Shown here in pieces: positions 22,573 to 33,192 of a stretch of 64,000 nucleotides of DNA (positions within the stretch are counted from its first letter, which is position 1; each line of letters begins with the position of its first letter). The notes below the pieces were generated by a model, which saw only the letters and a list, made by a program, of their open reading frames with translations, searched no databases and was not told the DNA's origin. Where the stretch lies: assembly GCA_041746575.1 (NCBI GenBank), contig JBGTGT010000040.1, forward strand, positions 1-64,000, in the 5' to 3' direction. The stretch comes from Microcystaceae cyanobacterium. GTDB lineage: Bacteria > Cyanobacteriota > Cyanobacteriia > Cyanobacteriales > Microcystaceae. Both the position numbers and the translations under genes were made by a program.

Positions 22573-23067
22573 ATGAATCAATCGGTCGTCGCAGTTATTG
22601 ATGGTGCTAGAGCGCGCTTTTTTCTGCTAGAACCTGTCGAATTCCCCGAATATCAGTCAGGTCCGAATCTGGTAGAACAAAGTTGTTTAACCAATACCAG
22701 TAATGAAGTGCAAGGAAAGGAACTCTGGGCTAACACGAAAAGTGGACGTAATGGGGGTTCAGGTAATCAAGGCCATGGTTACGATGATCATCGTCAAAAA
22801 CATTTAACTGAATTTGAGCGCAGTTTTGCCAAAGAAATTGCGACTACTATTCTGGAGATTATTCAGCAAAATACGGTTCATCATGCTGTTTTAGTGGCAG
22901 AACCCCAAATCTTAGGATTAATCCGAGAGGTACTACTTCCCCAACTGCCTAAACAGCTTAATGTCGAAGAATTAGCTAAAGATTTATGTAAACTTAAGCC
23001 TCAAGAACTGCATGAGTATTTGGCTGAACGGGGAATTTTGGCGGCGAGAAAAGCGGCGATTGGCTAA
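22573..23067 (+). CDS. Host attachment protein family (release-factor-like fold)
   Basis: VVAVIDGARARFF...ERSFAKEI...LVAEPQILGLIR...KDL. Confidence 0.85.
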   Translation: MNQSVVAVIDGARARFFLLEPVEFPEYQSGPNLVEQSCLTNTSNEVQGKELWANTKSGRNGGSGNQGHGYDDHRQKHLTEFERSFAKEIATTILEIIQQNTVHHAVLVAEPQILGLIREVLLPQLPKQLNVEELAKDLCKLKPQELHEYLAERGILAARKAAIG

Positions 23068-23099
23068 ACGGCGAAGTATAAGTATATTTTACTCTGTTT

Positions 23100-24302
23100 C
23101 TATTCGCTGTATTGAAGAGAAATGGGTAAACTCACTCTCGGTAAGCGATGCTTAAAACCGCACAGAATTTCCCACGAAATGGTGCCCAATTCAGTTGCCC
23201 AATCATCTGCGGAAATCGCCAAATCACCCTCTTTACCCATTAAAGTCACAATTTCTCCCGCTTGAATATGAGGTAAATGAGTGATATCTAACATTAGTTG
23301 ATCCATCGTAATTGCCCCAATTTGCGATACCCATTGCCCCTGAATAAGAACGCGCAAGCGATGGGATAATCGGCGGGGAATACCATCGGCATAGCCAATC
23401 CCGACCACCGCTAACCGTAAAGGGCGATCGCAGTTATACTGATGACCATAACTGACTCCTGAACCAATAGGCAAGTCTTTAATTTGGGTAATTCGGGCTT
23501 TAACTTGTAAAACAGGTTTGAGATTGACCGTTTCTCGCAAATGTTCCGCCGGGTATAAACCATACAGGGCAAGACCTACTCTGACTCTATCATAATGGTA
23601 TTGAGCATCCGTTAAGGTAGCCGCAGAATTGGCAATATGAAGGGAGGGAAGGGGGATACCGTTCTCTTGCAATTGAGAAATTACAAATTGAAACCGTTTA
23701 AGTTGCCTATCCATAATGGTAGGATTAGGGTCATCGGCGGTGGCAAAGTGAGAATAAATGCTTTTGATCTCCAAATAAGGCAATTGATGCACGAATTTGA
23801 CAAATTCCAATCCCTCAGTCCAAAGTGTGCCTAAACGAGACATTCCTGTATCTATTTTGAGATGAACGGGTAAAGGTTGCTCAATTTGGCTAGATACTTC
23901 GGAAAATAGCAACGCTTGTTCAATATTGCAGAGGGTGGGTTCGAGATGCCAATGAGCGATCGCTATAATCTCTTCTAAAGTGTTAATTGCGCCTAAAATG
24001 AGGATAGGGGCGGTAATTCCTGCCTGTCTCAGTTCAATGCCTTCCCCTAGGGTTGCAATCGCTAACCAATCTGCCCCATATTGTAAGGCCGTTTCTGCTA
24101 CTCGAATTGCCCCGTGACCATAGGCATCTGCCTTCACGACTGCCATTAATTCGGTTTTTGGAGCTAATTTTTGCTTAATTTGTCGTACGTTATCAGCTAA
24201 AGCCGCCAAATCTATTTCTATCCATGCCCGTTGGCGAATTACCGCGGATAATTGATAGGTGTGGCATTCTTTATCCCGAATCTGGGTTTCTTGACTCAAC
24301 AC
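23100..24302 (-). CDS. alr: Alanine racemase
   Basis: AVVKADAYGHG PLP lysine, HLKIDTGMSRLG, GYADG. Confidence 0.97.
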   Translation of the reverse strand: MLSQETQIRDKECHTYQLSAVIRQRAWIEIDLAALADNVRQIKQKLAPKTELMAVVKADAYGHGAIRVAETALQYGADWLAIATLGEGIELRQAGITAPILILGAINTLEEIIAIAHWHLEPTLCNIEQALLFSEVSSQIEQPLPVHLKIDTGMSRLGTLWTEGLEFVKFVHQLPYLEIKSIYSHFATADDPNPTIMDRQLKRFQFVISQLQENGIPLPSLHIANSAATLTDAQYHYDRVRVGLALYGLYPAEHLRETVNLKPVLQVKARITQIKDLPIGSGVSYGHQYNCDRPLRLAVVGIGYADGIPRRLSHRLRVLIQGQWVSQIGAITMDQLMLDITHLPHIQAGEIVTLMGKEGDLAISADDWATELGTISWEILCGFKHRLPRVSLPISLQYSE

Positions 24303-24471
24303 CGATTTACACTCCTGACAAACACACCTTTAAGAATAAGAATAGATTGAAAAATTGGCAACAATCTTTAATGATTAAATCATTTTTCTGGAGTAAGAGA
24401 CTTTTTGATTCTAATTGGAGTTCCATGACAATGATTAAAAAAACGCCACGGAATATTGCGGAAAAGTAACC

Positions 24472-26115
24472 TTACATCTCCCACAGTTTAATTTCCAAGT
24501 CATCCCCTGCACTCGCTAACCATCGTCCATCGGGACTAAAAGCGATTGTCCGCACTTCACCAATATGATCAGTTAAAGTGTTTATGAGTTCCCCAGAGGG
24601 AAATGTCCAGAGTTTAATCGTATAATCTGCGCTTGCACTCGCGAATTTTGTACCATCGGGATGAATGGCAATACACCAAACCCTTGCAGAATGACGATCT
24701 AGAATCTTAAGGGGTTTTTTAATATTATTAAGATAATCCCAGATTTTAATGGTGTGGTCTGCACTACTACTAACAAGGTAATTATCATGAATACTTAAAG
24801 ATAAAATCTCTCTAAGATGAGCATTATCATTAAAGGCAATGGGTTTTGTGATTGAATCTTTCATCTGCCAAATTTTAATTGTTTTCTGTTGACTACCGCT
24901 GACTAAAAATTGACTATCGGAACTAAAAGCAAGAGCATTCACGCAACTGGAATGACCTTGAAAACTTTGTTGCCAGTCTCCATTTTCAACATTCCATAAT
25001 TTAATTTTGCCACTACTTTGCCCCACAGCAAATCGTTGATTATCTAGACTAATCGGAAGACGATTAACAAGGGTAAGCGGACTCGATGAACTCGAGCGAG
25101 TGACACTTGCTTCGCTAATGAGAGGACGAGTTAATAAGTCCATCTTCCACAATTTAATCTGACTATTAGCACTACCTGTAATTAAAGTTTGACCGTTGGG
25201 ACTTATCCCAATTGCTTTAACCCGATTGGGGTTATCTTGGCTATTGCTATTTTCTAAGTGATTATGACCGACCAATAAGTGTTTCAATTGACCTGTTACT
25301 ATGTCCCAAACTCTCACTGTCTTATCATCACTACTACTGATTAAAAGTTTACTGTCTGGACTAAATGTTAAAGAACGAATCCAGTCTGAATGACCGAAAA
25401 AAGACTTTACGTAACGATTATTTTGAGCAAGATTACCATCCTTTCGCACAGGATTTATAGCAATGGGCGTCGCTTTCTTTTTTAAGATGGCCGTTGAAGA
25501 AAGAAAGGGGATTTCATCTTCGCTTTTTCGCTGAGGAACGTGAATAAACTTTCGTTCATTGCTATGTTTTTCTTGTTGTGTCCGATAGTCTGGTAAATTG
25601 ACATGAAGGGCGTCACATCCGACATCAAAGCAGTTTTCAATGGTCAAATCAGGTTGAAAATACCCTGTATAAAATCCCTTAGAAAAAGCGATCGCTGCTT
25701 GATCTAAAATCGCACTTTTCATGCCAATCGTGTAATTAATATGTTGGGCGATCGCCTCAGCCTGTTTCTCTGAATAACAGGCATTTAATAATACACATTC
25801 CACCCAATGACTTAAGTTGTCAAAAATATGAGACAATGTTTCTGCATCCAGCAGATGGGGTTCGCCGTTCTCTTGCTCAAAAACAATACCCTCCTCCCCT
25901 GTTCCATGACCACTAAAATGAACAATATGGGGTTTAATATCTAGTAATAATTGACTTAAATTTGATGGATTTACCATAGGACGAAGCTCAATGTAATGTT
26001 GCTTTCGATTCGACACTTGATCTCTTGCCTGTTGAATCGTGTAGAATTCTTTCATGATATCCAGTTGATCCGTTTTCTTGGGATTTGCTGTTAAGATTAA
26101 AATGGTTTTTGTCAT
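24472..26115 (-). CDS. CHAT-domain (caspase-like fold) protein with C-terminal WD40 propeller
   Basis: N-terminal ILILTANP, VHFSGHG and VLLNACYS (His-Cys dyad present); about seven GH...WD-type repeats. Confidence 0.9.
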   Translation of the reverse strand: MTKTILILTANPKKTDQLDIMKEFYTIQQARDQVSNRKQHYIELRPMVNPSNLSQLLLDIKPHIVHFSGHGTGEEGIVFEQENGEPHLLDAETLSHIFDNLSHWVECVLLNACYSEKQAEAIAQHINYTIGMKSAILDQAAIAFSKGFYTGYFQPDLTIENCFDVGCDALHVNLPDYRTQQEKHSNERKFIHVPQRKSEDEIPFLSSTAILKKKATPIAINPVRKDGNLAQNNRYVKSFFGHSDWIRSLTFSPDSKLLISSSDDKTVRVWDIVTGQLKHLLVGHNHLENSNSQDNPNRVKAIGISPNGQTLITGSANSQIKLWKMDLLTRPLISEASVTRSSSSSPLTLVNRLPISLDNQRFAVGQSSGKIKLWNVENGDWQQSFQGHSSCVNALAFSSDSQFLVSGSQQKTIKIWQMKDSITKPIAFNDNAHLREILSLSIHDNYLVSSSADHTIKIWDYLNNIKKPLKILDRHSARVWCIAIHPDGTKFASASADYTIKLWTFPSGELINTLTDHIGEVRTIAFSPDGRWLASAGDDLEIKLWEM

Positions 26116-26160
26116 TTTTTTAGCTCCGAAAAGTTGTTTTAATATCCTTCTGTTTTATGG

Positions 26161-27504
26161 TTATTCTTCTCGATTGTCTTGTAAATTACTTAATTTTCGA
26201 CTGGTGACATCTGCACTTAATCCCCAAAGAACTAAGCCTAAATAATCAGCAAAAGGATTAGCCCCGAAAGCGCGACCATTTTCGACATAAAGCGAACCCA
26301 TTCCAACAATAGATAAACCAATGAGTAAAACAAGGGAAAGGAGAGGACGAGCAATATAGAAAGTGGCATCTGTTCGGACTTGTTCAGAAACCCCAGAGAG
26401 GGTTATTAAAAAGTGTTGAAAATGCTCCAATCCTGTTTTAGGCGTAATAGAATAAGGGAGATGCTCGATGTTTTGAGTAAGGCGATTAATGGCATCATTT
26501 AAAGTGAAAACTCCGCCCACCCCTCCTCTAGCAGTCGCCATCGAACTATCTAATAAATCATTAATTTTTTGCAGGATTTCTTGACATTTTTCATCTTCTT
26601 TACGAAAGAGATATTGACGGGCTAAGGTAAGATAAGAATTAAGGGATTGACTAAGATCAATATCATTGTTAATTTGTTGTTCAATTCGGGTTAAATCTAT
26701 TAAGATATTTAGACGATTGCGTAGGATTTCTTCTTCTATCTTAGCCGCTTCTAGTTGTTGGCGATTAATCATTTTACGCAGGTCATCTGCCATTAAATTT
26801 AATTCTTTTTTATCGGTCTCAGATAAAGAAGCTTCTCGAATATCTAACTTAAGTCGATTCCATGCTTTTAGGGTTTCCGCTTGCGGTGTTCCTTCTTCGT
26901 TCATATATTTAATTAGACGACCAATGATAATACCCAAAAAGATGACAATCAAAGGAATAAGCGGGCCGACTCTGACATCAATACCAATCGGTAAAATAAA
27001 GCGTTCTGCTCGATTTGCCAACGTTAAATAAATTGCACCCATATATTGCTCAGGAGGCAATTGGGAACGATCAATATTTAAAGATAAATTGCTAATTCGA
27101 TTAGCGGGTAAAGATTTAACTTTTTTGTCAAAGAAAATGTTTTCTGCGGTAAGTTGATAGTTCGTTAAATTTCCTGATAGAACAATATCCGTGTTAATAA
27201 TTTCAACGGGGGTAGTATCCCGATTATCTAAATTTAATTGACGGTGATTAATTAACGCACTTTGAGGAAGAATTAAACGAGCTAAGGCACAATCTAACCC
27301 CTCCCAACAATTAACTAATTGCAGTTGAATATGTTCTGTCCCTTGTAAAGCAATTAATAAAGATTGAGGTTGAGGATTGAAGGTCGCTTCAGGTGATTCA
27401 ATAATTGTTTCTTCTTCTACAATCGCTGTTTCAGGTTGTGCTAAGCTTGAAAATTGGAAAATAATTAGAGAAAGAATAACAAAGAAAATAATTTTTTTTA
27501 TCAT
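26161..27504 (-). CDS. Uncharacterised membrane protein: signal peptide, extracytoplasmic domain, TM, coiled coil, two C-terminal TMs
   Basis: MIKKIIFFVILSLIIFQFSSLA signal; GPLIPLIVIFLGIIIG TM; heptad-rich middle region; LLSLVLLIGLSIVGMGSLY and DYLGLVLWGL. Confidence 0.8.
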   Translation of the reverse strand: MIKKIIFFVILSLIIFQFSSLAQPETAIVEEETIIESPEATFNPQPQSLLIALQGTEHIQLQLVNCWEGLDCALARLILPQSALINHRQLNLDNRDTTPVEIINTDIVLSGNLTNYQLTAENIFFDKKVKSLPANRISNLSLNIDRSQLPPEQYMGAIYLTLANRAERFILPIGIDVRVGPLIPLIVIFLGIIIGRLIKYMNEEGTPQAETLKAWNRLKLDIREASLSETDKKELNLMADDLRKMINRQQLEAAKIEEEILRNRLNILIDLTRIEQQINNDIDLSQSLNSYLTLARQYLFRKEDEKCQEILQKINDLLDSSMATARGGVGGVFTLNDAINRLTQNIEHLPYSITPKTGLEHFQHFLITLSGVSEQVRTDATFYIARPLLSLVLLIGLSIVGMGSLYVENGRAFGANPFADYLGLVLWGLSADVTSRKLSNLQDNREE

Positions 27505-27592
27505 ATTTTTCAATAGTTGATAGTTGGTTGATAGATGATAATCCTGTTTTTGACCATCACCTATCTTAAAAATGCAGTCGGCTGTTTGTAAG

Positions 27593-29689
27593 TTATAAAC
27601 GGGTAACTTTAACGGAAATTTGTTCTGTTACCCAATCATCTTTGGAATCAGAAATAGGGATAGCGGCACGGGTTACATTTGGTGAATCTTCGGGATCAGC
27701 ACCAATTTTTTCCATTAAGTGATTAAGTGAATTAATGCTAATGGCTTCTTCCCCTCTGGTTACTGAGCGGCTTTTAATCCTTTCTAATTCGCCACGAAGT
27801 TGTACGCTACGACTTTCCATTGGCTGATCAAGAGCAGGTAAAGTTAACCACCGAAAATCAGCGATTCCTTTACGAATGGCGATGACTTTTAGGGTTTCGA
27901 TTGCTTCTTGATATTCGGCATCATTGGGTAGAGCTAAACGTAATTTAATGTCGTTGGAATCACCACCTGCTAAGTTAAAGAAAGCAGATACTAAACCATC
28001 AATCGGAATTTGAGAAATTGCCCAAGTGGGTTCAATATCTAAAACTGCAATTTTTAAGTCTTGTGATCCTGTATTCGTGATTCTTAAGATTACGATCGCT
28101 TCATTTTTGATAGTGACTTCGCTTAGATTAAAAAAAGGCGTTTCGAGTTCATCTAAAAGTTCGACCTTCAAAGACTTAGACAGACTCGAACTATTATTAT
28201 TTAGACTGAGAACCGCTTGATATTTGGTTAAATGAACTAGACGTTCAATCACCTTTTTTGCCGCTTCTGAATCGTTGATTTTGAGGGCAGGACGTAGATT
28301 TTTGAGGGGTGATCCCTTGGCAATTTCGTACGTTCCATCCAGTGCAACAGCCAATTGAAACAGACTCCCTTCATCTTGACTGACTTCAGTTAACCAACCA
28401 TTCCCCTGTAAAGCTTCACGAACAACGGCTAGGGCAGTTTTTTGCTGATTAAATAAAGGTTGAGGCAGTTCACCGTCCTTGTCGCCTTCTGGTTTTTCAA
28501 ACAGACATATCCGACTGACTAAATCAATGGGAGGTTGAGTCATTACTGCCGGATAACCCCGTTCAATTTTCTGCGCTGAAACCACGCCACCTGCTTCAGA
28601 AGTGAGAATTTTGGCAAGGGAACTCCCCGCCTCAACTTTGGCCACTTCAACCATAGCGATAATTTGACTTTGCTCAGAAAAATGAATTGTTGTCAGGGGA
28701 TAAATAGCGAATCGTGTCCCTTTGCTTAAACCCTGCGCTAATCCTGCATTCAGAGTTACGATTCCTTTGGTTTCATCTACCTCCAGCACTGAGACGGTAT
28801 ATTGACTGGCTAAGTCCTCACTGCCAAAGACTAAGCGATCGCTGTCTCCTAATATCATGGGCAATTGTTGGGGGAATTTTGCTTGAATTTGAGCCGTTAC
28901 TCGATTATGTAAGGTTCTATAGCTCAAAGCTCCCTCAGTCGTGTTTAAGGTATTCACCAACCAATAGGTTAACGCTCCGTGACGATCGGAGCCGAGTACT
29001 GCATATTCGTAGGCGAATTCCGTTGGACGACAGGCGGCTAAGAGAACATAGTCTTTGCCTTCGGGCATCCAATAAGATTGGGAGCTATTTTGCGTTAAAA
29101 TCTGCCAATTTTCTAATAATTCTTGCCTTGATGCGACCTTACTGTCTGAAGAGCGAGGAGCTACGTCAATGGTTTGTGATCCTCGAATTTGAACATCGCC
29201 TCGGGCTGCGCCGCCGGAATGACAGCTATCGAGTACCACCGTCACGATTAACCCTTTATCCGTCATTCGTTTGAGAAGGGTTGCCATTTCCACATCCCGC
29301 AGATATCGCCCCTCTGTTCCCACATCCATCGGTACAATTCCTTCATCATTGGGCATTTCTCCCTTTTTTACTTCAGGAAAGATAGTGGTCGCTCTTCCGC
29401 CGTGACCAGCATAATGAAAATAGACGAGATCGCCTTTTTGCGCTGTTTCCGTGATCTCTTTAAACGTATTAACAATGTTGTCATAAGTTGGCAAGGGATC
29501 GGGCGTAAAAGTGAAATTATCAGAAAGAGGTGCCGTTAATCGCCAAATTTTCTTTGGTTTTTGAGTTTGCTGAATATATTGGTCAACGAGGTTAATATCT
29601 CGAACACATCCCCCCAGATTTAGATAATAGGGATTGGGGGTATAAGCATCAATACCAATTAAAAGAACGTAAAAATTTGGGTTACTCAT
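27593..29689 (-). CDS. Caspase family (peptidase C14, ortho/metacaspase) with long C-terminal extension
   Basis: LLIGIDAY, LGGCVRD, FHYAGHG (His96), VLDSCHSG (Cys156), LLAACRPTEFAYE, HGALTY. Confidence 0.93.
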   Translation of the reverse strand: MSNPNFYVLLIGIDAYTPNPYYLNLGGCVRDINLVDQYIQQTQKPKKIWRLTAPLSDNFTFTPDPLPTYDNIVNTFKEITETAQKGDLVYFHYAGHGGRATTIFPEVKKGEMPNDEGIVPMDVGTEGRYLRDVEMATLLKRMTDKGLIVTVVLDSCHSGGAARGDVQIRGSQTIDVAPRSSDSKVASRQELLENWQILTQNSSQSYWMPEGKDYVLLAACRPTEFAYEYAVLGSDRHGALTYWLVNTLNTTEGALSYRTLHNRVTAQIQAKFPQQLPMILGDSDRLVFGSEDLASQYTVSVLEVDETKGIVTLNAGLAQGLSKGTRFAIYPLTTIHFSEQSQIIAMVEVAKVEAGSSLAKILTSEAGGVVSAQKIERGYPAVMTQPPIDLVSRICLFEKPEGDKDGELPQPLFNQQKTALAVVREALQGNGWLTEVSQDEGSLFQLAVALDGTYEIAKGSPLKNLRPALKINDSEAAKKVIERLVHLTKYQAVLSLNNNSSSLSKSLKVELLDELETPFFNLSEVTIKNEAIVILRITNTGSQDLKIAVLDIEPTWAISQIPIDGLVSAFFNLAGGDSNDIKLRLALPNDAEYQEAIETLKVIAIRKGIADFRWLTLPALDQPMESRSVQLRGELERIKSRSVTRGEEAISINSLNHLMEKIGADPEDSPNVTRAAIPISDSKDDWVTEQISVKVTRL

Positions 29690-29795
29690 GGTTATTTAGG
29701 GATTAGGAGTTAAAAAATAAGGGGATTAGGGACAAGAAATCTGTTTATGTCCCTGTTTCTCCCCCCATTGCTAAAATTCATAGCTGGTCACTGTT

Positions 29796-30719
29796 TTAAG
29801 CCAGTTTTCCCCATGTATTAGGGCCAACCATGCCATCCGCGCTGAGTCCTTGCGCTTGCTGAAATTCTCGCACTGCTTTAGCGGTATTTGGTCCAAAAAC
29901 CCCATCTGCGCCAACGTTCAATTTTTGTTGCAATTTCACCACATCTGAACCCCGCATCATCGGACGACTAAGGCGTAGGAGACGAGGTTGTTCATCCCAA
30001 GGTGCGATCGCAAATCCCATCACCGGAGATTTCGTTAAGGCGGATTCAGTGTCGGGACCATAATCCCCATCTTCGTCAATTTTTGAAGTAGGATGATTTT
30101 TATTCCAGAGTTTTTGAATAGCTGACATTGCCGTACTGCGAAGATCTTTCTTTCCTGCGCCTACATAATCAAAATGAGGGGGATCAGAGGGGCCTAACCA
30201 ACGCCACCCCTGACGTTCGAGAAAAGGTTTCCAGCCATTATGATCTTGAATATCGATCGCTAATCCACTTTGGTGGTTACTACGCCCAGGAGCGGCAACA
30301 ATGGAATAACCACAACCCCGTCCCCACCGAAATAAGAGTAATTGTTGAGCAATCGTCCGATAAGCCGAATTAACGGTCATACTTATGCCTCTTTCTTGAA
30401 TAGCTTTGTGTAAGCCTTCTTTTGCGGGGGGTTGCACAAAGGGATAGGCCGCATCTCCCAAGTTCACCTTCAAATCATCAAAACTGACGAGGGCATCGGG
30501 AACAATGAGGTTCATCTGGTGAATCAACTGCTGAGACAGACCATCCACGATAAAGGTCGAGCATCCGGGAGCAGATCCCAGCAAACCTGTAAAAGCCGCC
30601 CGTGTTGCCACGTCTTCGCTGGCACTTCTGGCTTCTCCCTCATTAATATCTAGACAGGGATCAGTCTCAAAGTCTAGCTCGATAGTATCTAGGATGTTAT
30701 CCTTATGAAAATCGGTCAT
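29796..30719 (-). CDS. M15-type zinc peptidase with two peptidoglycan-binding domains and an acidic N-terminal leader
   Basis: SAYRT, SNHQSGLAIDI (SxHxxGxAxD), DPPHFDY; DGDYGPDT and DGVFGPNT..VREFQ..GL.ADGMVG PG-binding repeats; no signal peptide. Confidence 0.88.
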   Translation of the reverse strand: MTDFHKDNILDTIELDFETDPCLDINEGEARSASEDVATRAAFTGLLGSAPGCSTFIVDGLSQQLIHQMNLIVPDALVSFDDLKVNLGDAAYPFVQPPAKEGLHKAIQERGISMTVNSAYRTIAQQLLLFRWGRGCGYSIVAAPGRSNHQSGLAIDIQDHNGWKPFLERQGWRWLGPSDPPHFDYVGAGKKDLRSTAMSAIQKLWNKNHPTSKIDEDGDYGPDTESALTKSPVMGFAIAPWDEQPRLLRLSRPMMRGSDVVKLQQKLNVGADGVFGPNTAKAVREFQQAQGLSADGMVGPNTWGKLA

Positions 30720-30803
30720 GTTTTCTCTCCTTAGTGTGAGTAGGTGAACAAAATCAATGAATCAAGAACGCTGATAATTTGCTCTGTTTAACACCGTTTT
30801 TTC

Positions 30804-31718
30804 TTAAAGACCTAAAGCTTGACGGGTTGCTGAGCCAACTTTTCCGTCCACGTTTAACCCTTTTTGACCCTGAAACGTGCGTACTGCCTGATCAGTCGCT
30901 TGGCCAAAGACGCCATCTGCTCCTGATTCACCGACGCTTAAACCCGACTTGAGCAAAGCCTGTTGCAGTTGTTTGACATCTTCCCCCTTCATCGAAGGAC
31001 TGGTAAGTTGCAAGAGTCGAACCGTGATTTCTGTTTGTTGTGCTTGATCTTGCCAAGATTGGCTTAAAAACAAAGCTTGTTCTGCTTTACGTCGCCGAGT
31101 CAATCCGGCTAAGGCTTGTCCACCTGCTTTATTCCAGCGAGGAAATTCATTGGCTGCTCCTTGAATATCGCCTTGATTGAGCTTTTTGAGCAACGTAGAT
31201 TGAAAAAACGCCCTTGCTCCCACATTGAAAGCAAAAGAGACGAGAGCCGCAAATTGATGCTCATTGAGGGCAATTTTAACAGCGCGGGAAACCGCCTCTT
31301 CAAAATTAGCAAGGTCTTCTCGCAGAAAATCATCCGCCTTCGCAACGGCAATTCTCATTCCTCGAAAAACCCCTTTGGTATGACCATAACCAATCGTCCA
31401 AACGCCTACCCCATCGTCATAGGCTTTTAACTCAATAAGTGAACCCTTTTGAAAAACTTTTTCGGCTAATCCTTCAAACGATTTAATTAAGTTGAGTCCT
31501 TCTGAATTAATTCGTTGTCGAGCGGCGCGGGTTGCCGTTTCCCTTATTTCAGGAACGGGTGTATCAGCCTCTGCGATCTGAAAAGTTGTTGCTGGGGAGA
31601 ATGCCAAAACGTCTTGGAGTCTTTGAGCATCTCCTTGCGTTTCCGTCATTTTAATGGCTGTACCGTCTTCGAGTTCATAAACCCGGCCATCGGCAAAAAT
31701 AAGGAGTGAATAGGACAT
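30804..31718 (-). CDS. GH24 (phage-type) lysozyme with C-terminal peptidoglycan-binding domain and N-terminal leader
   Basis: LIKSFEG, AYDDGVGVWTIGYGHT, QFAALVSFAFNVG, GLTRRRKAE; MKGEDVKQLQQAL..DGVFG..T PG-binding domain; no signal peptide. Confidence 0.92.
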   Translation of the reverse strand: MSYSLLIFADGRVYELEDGTAIKMTETQGDAQRLQDVLAFSPATTFQIAEADTPVPEIRETATRAARQRINSEGLNLIKSFEGLAEKVFQKGSLIELKAYDDGVGVWTIGYGHTKGVFRGMRIAVAKADDFLREDLANFEEAVSRAVKIALNEHQFAALVSFAFNVGARAFFQSTLLKKLNQGDIQGAANEFPRWNKAGGQALAGLTRRRKAEQALFLSQSWQDQAQQTEITVRLLQLTSPSMKGEDVKQLQQALLKSGLSVGESGADGVFGQATDQAVRTFQGQKGLNVDGKVGSATRQALGL

Positions 31719-32073
31719 TTTTGATAATCAGATTAATACGCACTATCAAATACACCAATTATCGTAAGTGAGATTCCGGACATTTATTTAAGGGATTTAT
31801 GATTTTTGTCAAATCTTCAAAAAACAAGATTTTATAAGTCGAAAATTCCCTCATCTCCCCATTTCTCTCCCTTTCGACCCCTCGATTCAGAACAGATAAC
31901 AAAAACTCTATCGCCCCATTAGCAGATTTTAATGCTGTTGATCCTGAATTGTCCGCCCGACAACGATATACTAAGCAATAGCATTGTTAAAACAAGTTTA
32001 CAAAACGCGCTTAGCATTGCTAGCTCTAGTGATACTAAACTTATCAAGAGATTACCCTCAATAAGTAACGAAA

Positions 32074-33192
32074 ATGACTACAGGAATTGACCTTAAAGGC
32101 AGTTTTATTCAATCCCTTACCGATTATGGTGTTCCGTCGGGGTTAGCCAAAACCCTCTGGATTCCGCTACCCTCATTTTTAATGATTATTGGGGCAACTG
32201 TCGGCGTTTTAGTGGTAGTTTGGCTAGAACGTAAGATTTCCGCCGCCGCACAACAGCGCATTGGTCCTGAATATGCTGGTCCTTTAGGCGTTCTTCAACC
32301 CGTTGCCGATGGCATCAAATTGGTCTTAAAAGAAGATATCATCCCCGCTAAAGCCGATCCTTGGTTGTTTACCATTGGTCCAATCTTGGTGGTTCTCCCG
32401 GTCTTTGTTTCTTATTTAATTGTCCCTTTTGGGCAAAATTTAGTAATTACTGACCTTAATATCGGGATTTTCCTCTGGATTGCCCTCTCTAGTATCGCAC
32501 CGATTGGCTTACTGATGTCAGGCTATGCCTCCAACAATAAATATTCTCTATTAGGGGGACTCAGAGCGGCCGCTCAATCTATCAGTTACGAAATTCCCTT
32601 AGCCTTATCGGTGTTGGCAGTAGTCATGATGTCCAATAGCCTTAGTACCATTGACATTGTACAGCAACAGTCCGGTTATGGCATCTTAGGCTGGAATATT
32701 TGGCGACAACCCGTCGGTTTCCTCATTTTTTGGATGGCCGCCTTAGCTGAATGTGAACGGTTACCCTTTGATTTACCCGAAGCGGAAGAAGAACTGGTCG
32801 CCGGTTATCAAACCGAATATGCAGGGATGAAATTTGGTTTATTTTACGTCGGATCTTACGTTAACCTAGTACTATCTGCTTTAGTCGTTGCCATTCTCTA
32901 TTTGGGTGGTTGGGAGTTTCCCATTCCCCTTGATCGCTTGGCAGGTTGGTTAGGCATCAATGAAGCCAATGCGGGATTACAGGTGATTACCGCTTCATTA
33001 GGCATCATTATGACGGTTTTGAAAGCCTATTTACTGATTTTTGTAGCGATATTACTGCGTTGGACACTGCCACGGGTACGGATTGACCAACTCTTAGATT
33101 TTGGCTGGAAATTCTTGTTACCTGTCTCCCTTGCCAATTTATTGCTGACGGCCGCTCTGAAATTAGCCTTTCCTGTTGCTTTCGGGGGTTAA
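32074..33192 (+). CDS. ndhA: NDH-1 subunit A
   Basis: [43 protein letters not shown]. Confidence 0.98.

Follow-up and report, generated by a model that had tools for sequence, protein, structure and literature searches.

What connects a caspase-like protease with two unrelated peptidoglycan hydrolases encoded beside it? The question is raised by a 64,000-nucleotide stretch of DNA from a Microcystaceae cyanobacterium (GenBank assembly GCA_041746575.1, contig JBGTGT010000040.1, positions 1 to 64,000 of the forward strand; hereafter the window), in which six minus-strand genes stand in series with intergenic gaps of 45-169 bp. They encode a GH24 lysozyme, an M15 peptidase, a Peptidase_C14 caspase homologue, a membrane protein, a protein joining a CHAT domain to a WD40 propeller, and an alanine racemase (Table 1). 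The initial annotation of the window had pointed to an identical pentapeptide, ATRAA, at the end of an acidic leader in both hydrolases, and had proposed that the caspase of the operon cuts both leaders off at TR↓AA (the arrow marks the scissile bond). Our analysis suggests that a conserved protease site probably lies at the leader/catalytic junction of both enzymes and would be cut by the Arg/Lys-specific C14 caspase of the operon, unlocking lysis, although the conserved element is a basic residue followed by small residues and not the pentapeptide itself.

The pentapeptide is indeed present in both proteins. The lysozyme open reading frame (ORF) reads ...PEIRETATRAARQRINSEGLNLIKSFEG, which includes A62-T-R-A-A66, and the M15 ORF reads ...ARSASEDVATRAAFTGLLG, which includes A38-T-R-A-A42. 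The two sites differ in their codons, as had been noted (GCA ACC CGC GCC GCT in the lysozyme, GCA ACA CGG GCG GCT in the M15 peptidase). One common 5-mer is by itself weak evidence, since any such match arises in 4.7% of 20,000 shuffles of the two proteins (same size and composition, peptidoglycan-binding domains excluded) and since the hydrolases have a second one, ALVSF (lysozyme 158, M15 76), which looks accidental. For the two leaders only (80 x 60 amino acids), the rate falls to 0.37%. The rate of 4.7% and the existence of ALVSF favor the view that ATRAA is a chance match between two Ala/Arg-containing linkers with no function, as does the fact that, among the homologues listed, the exact pentapeptide is missing from every one of the 119 other M15 peptidases and from all but one of the 119 other lysozymes. 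Chance may cover identity at P3, P2, P1′ and P2′, but it covers neither the invariant basic P1 with small P1′ and P2′ residues at the same junction nor the linkage of this site to the caspase, both described below. Moreover, TRAA occurs ten times in the genome (2,800 ORFs of at least 150 amino acids, 1.06 million residues), and three of the ten occurrences lie in the adjacent lysozyme, M15 peptidase and caspase; some 4-mer common to these three proteins has a shuffle P of 0.013. As an explanation of the site, coincidence is thus largely refuted and appears very improbable. The only other ATRAA in ORFs of that size was found outside the window, in a 450-aa ORF (..LIATRAARSRD..) on contig C47 (9860-11212).

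The conservation of the site was analyzed by aligning the best 120 homologues of each hydrolase, taken from 600 M15 and 5,102 lysozyme matches (E <= 0.001). Among these 120 + 120 listed homologues, exact ATRAA is restricted to the window's own two hydrolases and one other lysozyme, so the expectation that ATRAA or TR[AGS] would be the conserved motif was not borne out. What is conserved is the charge at P1. In the lysozymes, the column of R64 holds R in 95 and K in 25 sequences and is therefore basic in all 120, with P (74) or R (25) prevailing at P2, G (88) or A (18) at P1′, and S (48), G (30) or A (25) at P2′. In the M15 peptidases, R (98) or K (22) is found within four residues before a conserved aromatic residue (F/W/Y) in all 120, preceded by P (37), A (31), T (22) or I (14) and followed by A (67), S (23) or G (22). 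The flanking positions P5-P3 vary widely in both families. The conserved core would thus be roughly [P/A/T/I/R]-[R/K]↓[G/A/S]-[S/G/A], with ATRAA as the probable version of this genome, and free exchange of R and K beside variable flanks is the pattern that would be expected of P1 for an Arg/Lys-specific protease. A candidate cleavage motif, [RK] followed by small P1′ and P2′ residues, is therefore kept in both enzymes. The proposal that an arginine at the leader/catalytic junction serves as P1 for the caspase is accordingly strengthened by comparison, that is, by the retention of R/K, the operon context and the controls, whereas its exact motif is not. The P1 residues of the two hydrolases were also paired (49 pairs, from 48 loci and the window), giving 38 RR, 9 RK and 2 KK pairs and no clear signal of co-variation.

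The linkage of the site to the caspase was surveyed in species-representative genomes around M15 homologues, which yielded 80 related loci whose components were called by hidden Markov models (HMMs) built here (Table 1). The usual gene order across cyanobacteria is lysozyme, M15 peptidase, caspase and then CHAT protein. A full M15 site is present in 62 loci, and the caspase is seen in 47 of them; in each of the remaining 15, the contig ends within 5 kb downstream of the M15 gene. Among the 18 loci without a full site, four (L049, L091, L102 and L105) contain variant or fused forms that keep TR↓G or TR↓S, three of them with a caspase (L049, L091 and L102). The 14 M15 homologues without the motif, from Coleofasciculus, Moorena and similar, have different or longer N-termini, and none of the 14 has a caspase in its locus; six of these loci extend for at least 6 kb on both sides. 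The linkage was also viewed from the lysozyme side. In 401 sampled cyanobacterial genomes, lysozyme matches that include the leader (starting at or before query residue 5) were found in 16 places in 13 genomes; a further match, interrupted by a stop codon, begins at residue 21, and none of the remaining GH24 matches begins before residue 50. All 13 genomes harbor the caspase family, 12 by a search with its C-terminal region and the remaining one (G180) by direct search, where the caspase lies on the same contig 6.4 kb downstream. The family itself is patchy, being present in 18 of the 401 genomes, in 9 of 156 genera and in none of the 20 other genomes of the window's own family. The effector genes are therefore conserved in company with the protease gene at both scales, in 50 of 80 loci and in 13 of 13 genomes.

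The lysozyme belongs to GH24 by Pfam, by fold and by its catalytic Glu. It matches Phage_lysozyme PF00959 at 1.4e-47 (residues 96-213) and carries PG_binding_1 at its C-terminus (1.8e-17, residues 245-302), and E82 of its FEG motif does not vary among 113 sequences. Its AlphaFold2 model, with a mean predicted local distance difference test score (pLDDT) of 92.9 from a 113-row alignment, matches structures 7m5i, 6h9d, 9kbs and 2anv with Z values of 20.5-21.6 and root-mean-square deviations of 1.4-2.2 over 141-147 residues, the matched folds including P22 lysozyme, the FAHEc1 endolysin and the SpmX muramidase. In these matches, the alignment begins with residues 66-68 of the model opposite residues 0-3 of the matched enzymes, and a cut at R64 places the new N-terminus two residues ahead of the position aligned with residue 1 of P22 lysozyme. 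Once cut after R64, the lysozyme would therefore start much as native phage GH24 enzymes do. The least confident block of the model, residues 61-70 (pLDDT 71), holds this site, whereas the leader before it is confidently predicted (about 94) and is kept in all 120 listed homologues. The initial annotation had described an acidic leader on both hydrolases; this fits the M15 peptidase, while the lysozyme leader consists of a predicted folded domain at residues 1-48 and a Pro-rich linker. Neither leader matched a Pfam family above threshold, and a protein-atlas search with the lysozyme leader returned no usable match. With a profile of this leader, 52 representatives were found among 1.84 billion proteins. 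When 17 of the 52 were scanned with Pfam, seven were GH24 enzymes, six had no family, and one each carried an SLT, Peptidase_C39_2, GH19-like or Amidase_2 domain (P0361, P0363, P0372 and P0377); the leader thus travels between wall hydrolases.

The second hydrolase is an M15B/VanY-type LAS zinc peptidase by the same kinds of evidence. It matches VanY PF02557 at 1.3e-09 (38.4 bits, cutoff 25) and PG_binding_1 at 1e-17, the residues S147, H149, G152, A154, D156 and H182, which form the SxHxxGxAxD motif and the distal His, are invariant in 113 sequences, and Foldseek matched its model to VanXYc (4mur, E 9.1e-05), LdcB (4mph) and Ply500 (2vo9). The model has a pLDDT of 90.9, with residues 1-15 below 50 and two leader helices, 23-35 and 37-42, at 70-77. 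The leaders of its homologues contain on average 8.9 acidic and 1.3 basic residues in 32 amino acids, and Cys22 (30654-30656) is present in 119 of 120 listed homologues. In the fused M15 forms of 709-726 amino acids (L091, L102 and L105), Glu replaces this Cys. A thiol or a carboxylate at position 22 would fit a 'switch' ligand for the catalytic zinc.

The candidate protease has the features expected of an enzyme that cuts at such sites. Residues 8-279 of the caspase match PF00656 (E 9.3e-20, 71.7 bits, cutoff 21.4), the PADLOC 'caspase' model matches at 9.4e-36, and the metacaspase-type His/Cys dyad is found in the motifs FHYAGHGG (HYxGHG) and LDSCHSGG. H96, C156, D31 (in GCVRD) and D154 (in LDSC) are invariant in 49 aligned sequences. 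The Asp pair expected for Arg/Lys specificity is thus present as D31 and D154, which we take from metacaspase structures to be the S1-pocket residues that accept Arg or Lys. Orthocaspases cleave after positively charged residues, according to the portion of the literature available to us (PMC6426788). The caspase also contains VTRAA in its own C-terminal tail, which had escaped the initial annotation. The corresponding column holds R in 39 and K in one of 44 sequences (43 from the related loci and that of the window), some others having R or K one position further on, within the context P-x-x-T-R-[K/A] ahead of a conserved E-W-T-T-K strand. This tail, or a conserved GGATRGD..IRG segment at residues 159-170 right after the catalytic Cys, could be an autoprocessing site, judging from sequence; the tail could alternatively be structural. 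A predicted complex of the full-length caspase with lysozyme residues 1-232 scored 0.00 and 0.04 (mark 0.32) and counts neither way.

The same kind of junction recurs in other proteins around the caspase. In the 450-aa membrane protein of the window, ATAR↓GG lies between a mid-protein transmembrane segment and C-terminal hydrophobic segments, and 57 of 58 homologues of 420-499 amino acids keep [RK][GAS] within the eight aligned columns, relatives of about 550 amino acids mostly being without it. Several homologues come from contigs equal in length to those of lysozyme or M15 matches, which points to co-location. The protein is a candidate caspase-released membrane-lesion factor. It has a signal-like N-terminus and a coiled-coil-like stretch in addition to its transmembrane and hydrophobic segments. 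Related locus L138 encodes a C39-like peptidase, whose leader of about 88 amino acids ends with VPR↓GE, and a leader-bearing lysozyme in which the site reads GVR↓GG. Furthermore, in 12 of 12 aligned members of a family of about 159 amino acids, an [R/K]↓[G/A] site (xPR↓G or xAR↓A) separates an acidic N-terminal part from a hydrophobic C-terminal helix; this helix is Gly/Ala-rich and contains C-x-x-W (for example L059:10324-10803, L032:15154-15633 and L138:8659-9285). PADLOC models match the caspase, the CHAT domain and, weakly, this small protein (PDC-M35B, 2.8e-06). Its identification as EACC1 was rejected: it is helical and hydrophobic with an R↓G site, whereas Evans et al. (bioRxiv 10.1101/2025.11.14.688446) describe EACC1 as a beta-rich protein of about 13 kDa that is cut at an Asp. 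LCAT/PGAP1-like lipases of about 480 amino acids are found beside orthologous caspases (for example L024:4337-5845 and L034:10322-11830) or fused to the C-terminus of caspases of 1,150-1,290 amino acids (for example L091:12366-16226); the window has none. The R/K-small pairs of these lipases are not diagnostic of cleavage, several being invariant, including the family motif GTPYRGS. Other orthologous caspases are near a fusion protein of M74, PG_binding and GH19 domains. What recurs is a setting of envelope-degrading enzymes around a caspase.

Several observations weigh against cleavage of the leaders by the caspase as the explanation of these junctions. The homologues share ancestry, and the 120-of-120 counts are therefore not independent events. 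R40 of the M15 peptidase lies in the short predicted helix 37-42 (pLDDT about 70) and not in an obvious loop, and the site in the caspase tail is less typical because K often follows it, unlike the hydrolase sites. The protein of about 159 amino acids was not found in the window's genome. The hydrolases carry no export signal, so leader removal alone cannot deliver them to the wall. Distant leader-bearing proteins, some of them from cyanobacteria such as Pseudanabaena sp. PCC 6802 and Leptolyngbya sp. FACHB-711, have no clear [RK]↓[GAS] junction, and around two tandem leader hydrolases in locus L164 (3871-5422) neither the 3.9 kb upstream nor the 8.5 kb downstream contains a caspase; this is the single locus of the distant leader type retrieved, by a metagenome scan with P0387, and a scan with P0348 found no relative. 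In addition, the C-x-x-I-N leader motif occurs in M15 homologues that have neither a basic site nor a nearby caspase (L086, L088, L094, L095 and L100), so that some of this 'leader' may belong to the M15 enzyme proper. Together, the distant leaders without site or caspase and the persisting Cys motif leave room for a caspase-independent role of the leaders. Finally, the CHAT protein is a second caspase-fold protease in the operon that could be the cutter.

Some of these points bear on the possibility that the basic residue and the leaders have a non-proteolytic function, in folding, docking, substrate binding or as a hinge, and are never cut, the linkage to the caspase reflecting co-regulation only. 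The well-folded lysozyme leader and its occurrence on SLT, C39-like, GH19-like and Amidase_2 enzymes are in keeping with such a function, as are the distant tandem pair and the M15 motif that persists apart from the caspase. A structural role would, however, leave unexplained the free exchange of R and K amid variable flanks, the same [RK]-small-small junction in at least five unrelated families beside the caspase, the loss of the site exactly in the caspase-unlinked M15 homologues, and a cut position that recreates the native phage GH24 N-terminus. We therefore regard this possibility as unlikely.

The leaders could also be removed at the basic residues by another protease, either the CHAT protein or a housekeeping trypsin-like enzyme, with the C14 caspase acting upstream, as it might in a cascade, or on other targets. 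The 547-aa protein matches the CHAT domain at 2.5e-09 on residues 36-120 and WD40 at 5.2e-61, and its N-domain carries a His/Cys pair (HFSGHG...LNACYS) and is encoded in 35 of 80 related loci, including 28 of the 50 with a caspase. Published precedents exist for proteolytic cascades that run from a CHAT protease to one of caspase-like type, as seen in the accessible part of the source (bioRxiv 10.1101/2023.06.23.546230). The linkage of the caspase is nevertheless tighter than that of CHAT (50 vs 35 of 80 loci), and the C14 enzyme carries the Asp pair that we presume to select a basic P1, so that a different cutter seems quite improbable. That the two junctions are protease sites is an inference well supported by conservation, linkage, two natural controls, the structural argument and a published analogue, and their probable cleavage by the C14 caspase is the reading that we favor.

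Table 1 Coordinates of the features in the window and frequencies of the components in related M15-centred loci. Bonds marked by an arrow are proposed scissile bonds.
Feature	Position	Strand	Related loci	Basis
GH24 lysozyme with C-terminal PG_binding_1, 304 aa	30804-31718	-		ORF and Pfam
Lysozyme leader, residues 1-64: folded ~48-aa beta3-alpha-beta domain and Pro-rich linker	31527-31718	-		AlphaFold2
ATRAA in lysozyme, A62-A66, R64↓A65	31521-31535	-		Sequence
VanY/M15-type LAS metallopeptidase with PG_binding_1, 307 aa	29796-30719	-		ORF and Pfam
M15 acidic leader, residues 1-40, conserved Cys22 (E-x-C-x-E-I-N-E-x-E)	30600-30719	-		Homologue alignment
ATRAA in M15 peptidase, A38-A42, R40↓A41	30594-30608	-		Sequence
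Peptidase_C14 caspase homologue, 698 aa: metacaspase-type p20 and ~400-aa family-specific C-terminal region	27593-29689	-		Pfam
VTRAA in caspase C-terminal tail, residues 672-676	27662-27676	-		Sequence
Membrane protein, 450 aa, candidate third substrate	26161-27513	-		ORF, no Pfam family above threshold
ATAR↓GG in 450-aa membrane protein, residues 326-331	26521-26538	-		Sequence
N-terminal CHAT (caspase fold) and WD40 propeller, 547 aa, candidate sensor or second protease	24472-26115	-		Pfam
Alanine racemase (alr), 400 aa	23100-24302	-		Pfam
Family caspase			50/80	HMM
Leader-bearing lysozyme			48/80	HMM
CHAT-N-domain protein			35/80 (28 of 50 with caspase)	HMM
~159-aa hydrophobic protein			27/80	HMM
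LCAT/PGAP1-like lipase			16/80	HMM

The operon is flanked by housekeeping genes, alr on one side and ndh genes on the other, and neither phage genes nor a recognized holin was found beside it among the window ORFs and their Pfam matches. The alr gene is directly downstream on the same strand after a gap of 169 bp; it is probably not part of the system, because a check of five orthologous loci revealed no alr homologue. A promoter and terminator scan of 23000-32100 gave 20 promoter-like sequences (19.4 in shuffles) and nine terminator-like sequences (8.8 in shuffles). A hydrophobic N-terminus is lacking in the lysozyme, the M15 peptidase and the caspase, and all three are therefore predicted to be cytoplasmic.

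From these data, a course of events can be proposed. A trigger would activate the caspase, its sensing possibly relying on the CHAT-WD40 protein or on the C-terminal region of the caspase itself. The active caspase would cut after R64 of the lysozyme and R40 of the M15 peptidase and remove the leaders, a step consistent with their conservation and linkage, and leader removal would license both hydrolases. A membrane component with the same kind of site, the 450-aa protein in the window and the hydrophobic protein of about 159 amino acids and/or the LCAT-like lipase elsewhere, would breach the membrane, through which the signal-less hydrolases could reach the wall, leading to cell lysis. The cassette would then be a cell-encoded, protease-gated counterpart of a holin-endolysin system, likely used in abortive-infection defence or developmental cell death. 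In its broadest form, which we advance tentatively, a single Arg/Lys-specific caspase would license several latent lytic proteins via [R/K]↓[G/A/S] in a cell-encoded autolysis cassette, a convergent holin-endolysin counterpart timed by proteolysis, with a portable lysozyme pro-domain and a Cys22 zinc switch. The substrates in the window would be a muramidase, a peptidoglycan peptidase and a membrane protein, to which a small hydrophobic protein, a C39-like peptidase and a lipase might be added elsewhere, and the cassette may serve altruistic lysis in defence or in filament or baeocyte development.

The proposed system can be compared with several known ones. Bacterial gasdermins are pore formers that an associated caspase-like protease releases by C-terminal cleavage, leading to lytic death. 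Here, too, a protease is proposed to remove an inhibitory segment from the product of a neighbouring gene, but the targets are wall hydrolases with N-terminal leaders, and a separate membrane protein would take on any function as pore or holin. Pro-SleC, a zymogen that lyses the clostridial spore cortex, loses its N-terminal pro-region to the subtilisin-like Csp proteases during germination. It resembles the present case in pairing a PG_binding_1 peptidoglycan hydrolase with a dedicated protease that would remove an N-terminal pro-region, and differs in that the protease here is a caspase and not a subtilisin, there is no spore cortex compartment and the purpose is not germination; the zymogenic form of SleC (PDB 9h68) matched both hydrolase models, through the peptidoglycan-binding domain only. 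Phage endolysins without signal peptides, of GH24 or M15 type, accumulate in the cytoplasm and need a membrane lesion. The two hydrolases of the window are likewise signal-less and endolysin-like in both catalytic domains, but, unlike holin-endolysin cassettes, they have no flanking phage genes and no recognized holin, and their timing would be set by proteolysis and not by holin triggering.

The closest analogue, described by Evans et al. (bioRxiv 10.1101/2025.11.14.688446), comes from Lysobacter capsici. Its LcHydrolase, a zymogen of the alpha/beta-hydrolase type, is cut by the adjacent LcCaspase at two R↓G sites that are conserved across 161 homologues. As far as the available text of that preprint goes, the two systems share an effector gene adjoining that of a caspase-like cysteine protease, an Arg followed by a small residue that is conserved in homologues, and a WD40 (beta-transducin) protein, acting as sensor in modules of that type and encoded in the operon here. 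Relatives of the present locus also have an LCAT/PGAP1-like alpha/beta hydrolase beside the caspase or fused to it. In contrast, two peptidoglycan hydrolases (GH24 and M15), both with peptidoglycan-binding domains, are the effectors here; a single cut is predicted, removing an N-terminal leader, in place of two internal cuts; and several substrates would belong to one protease. LcHydrolase, as described in that text, is latent until cut, as is proposed for the effectors here. The ten protease-associated effector families listed in the available text of Evans et al. include no wall hydrolase, and the word 'lysozyme' occurs there 0 times. A cyanobacterial example is MaOC1, an orthocaspase of Microcystis aeruginosa that cleaves an antitoxin encoded by a neighbouring gene (PMC7935541). 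Judging from the accessible part of that source, the window caspase is, like MaOC1, a cyanobacterial p20-type caspase homologue that would cut after basic residues in the product of an adjacent gene; MaOC1 prefers basic clusters and the antitoxin is degraded, whereas here a single basic residue with small residues lies at the domain junction of an enzyme. Unlike MaOC1, the window caspase also has a different C-terminal region of about 400 amino acids. Lysozyme and papain-like peptidoglycan peptidase effectors linked to EAD1 appear in the available text of Kaur et al. (2020), in a different, trypsin-based system, and that of Asplund-Samuelsson et al. (2012) describes metacaspase-Amidase_2 fusions and an amidase in one metacaspase operon. 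No description of caspase-gated peptidoglycan hydrolases was found in a search of the full text of the literature, supplementary files lying outside that search. The two hydrolases therefore probably represent a new type of effector within the known logic of protease-gated effectors.

The gating of death effectors by proteases is coming to be seen as a main logic of bacterial immunity, and the effectors characterized so far are pores, nucleases, an uncharacterized alpha/beta hydrolase and regulators; if the present reading is correct, peptidoglycan hydrolases would join them. The physiological substrates of cyanobacterial orthocaspases are almost unknown, and the lysozyme and the M15 peptidase would provide two concrete ones with candidate bonds, R64↓A65 and R40↓A41. 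The leader of the lysozyme would be a portable element that silences endolysin-like enzymes and could serve the engineering of controllable lysis. In bloom- and mat-forming cyanobacteria, the pathway would link caspase activity directly to cell lysis at the molecular level.

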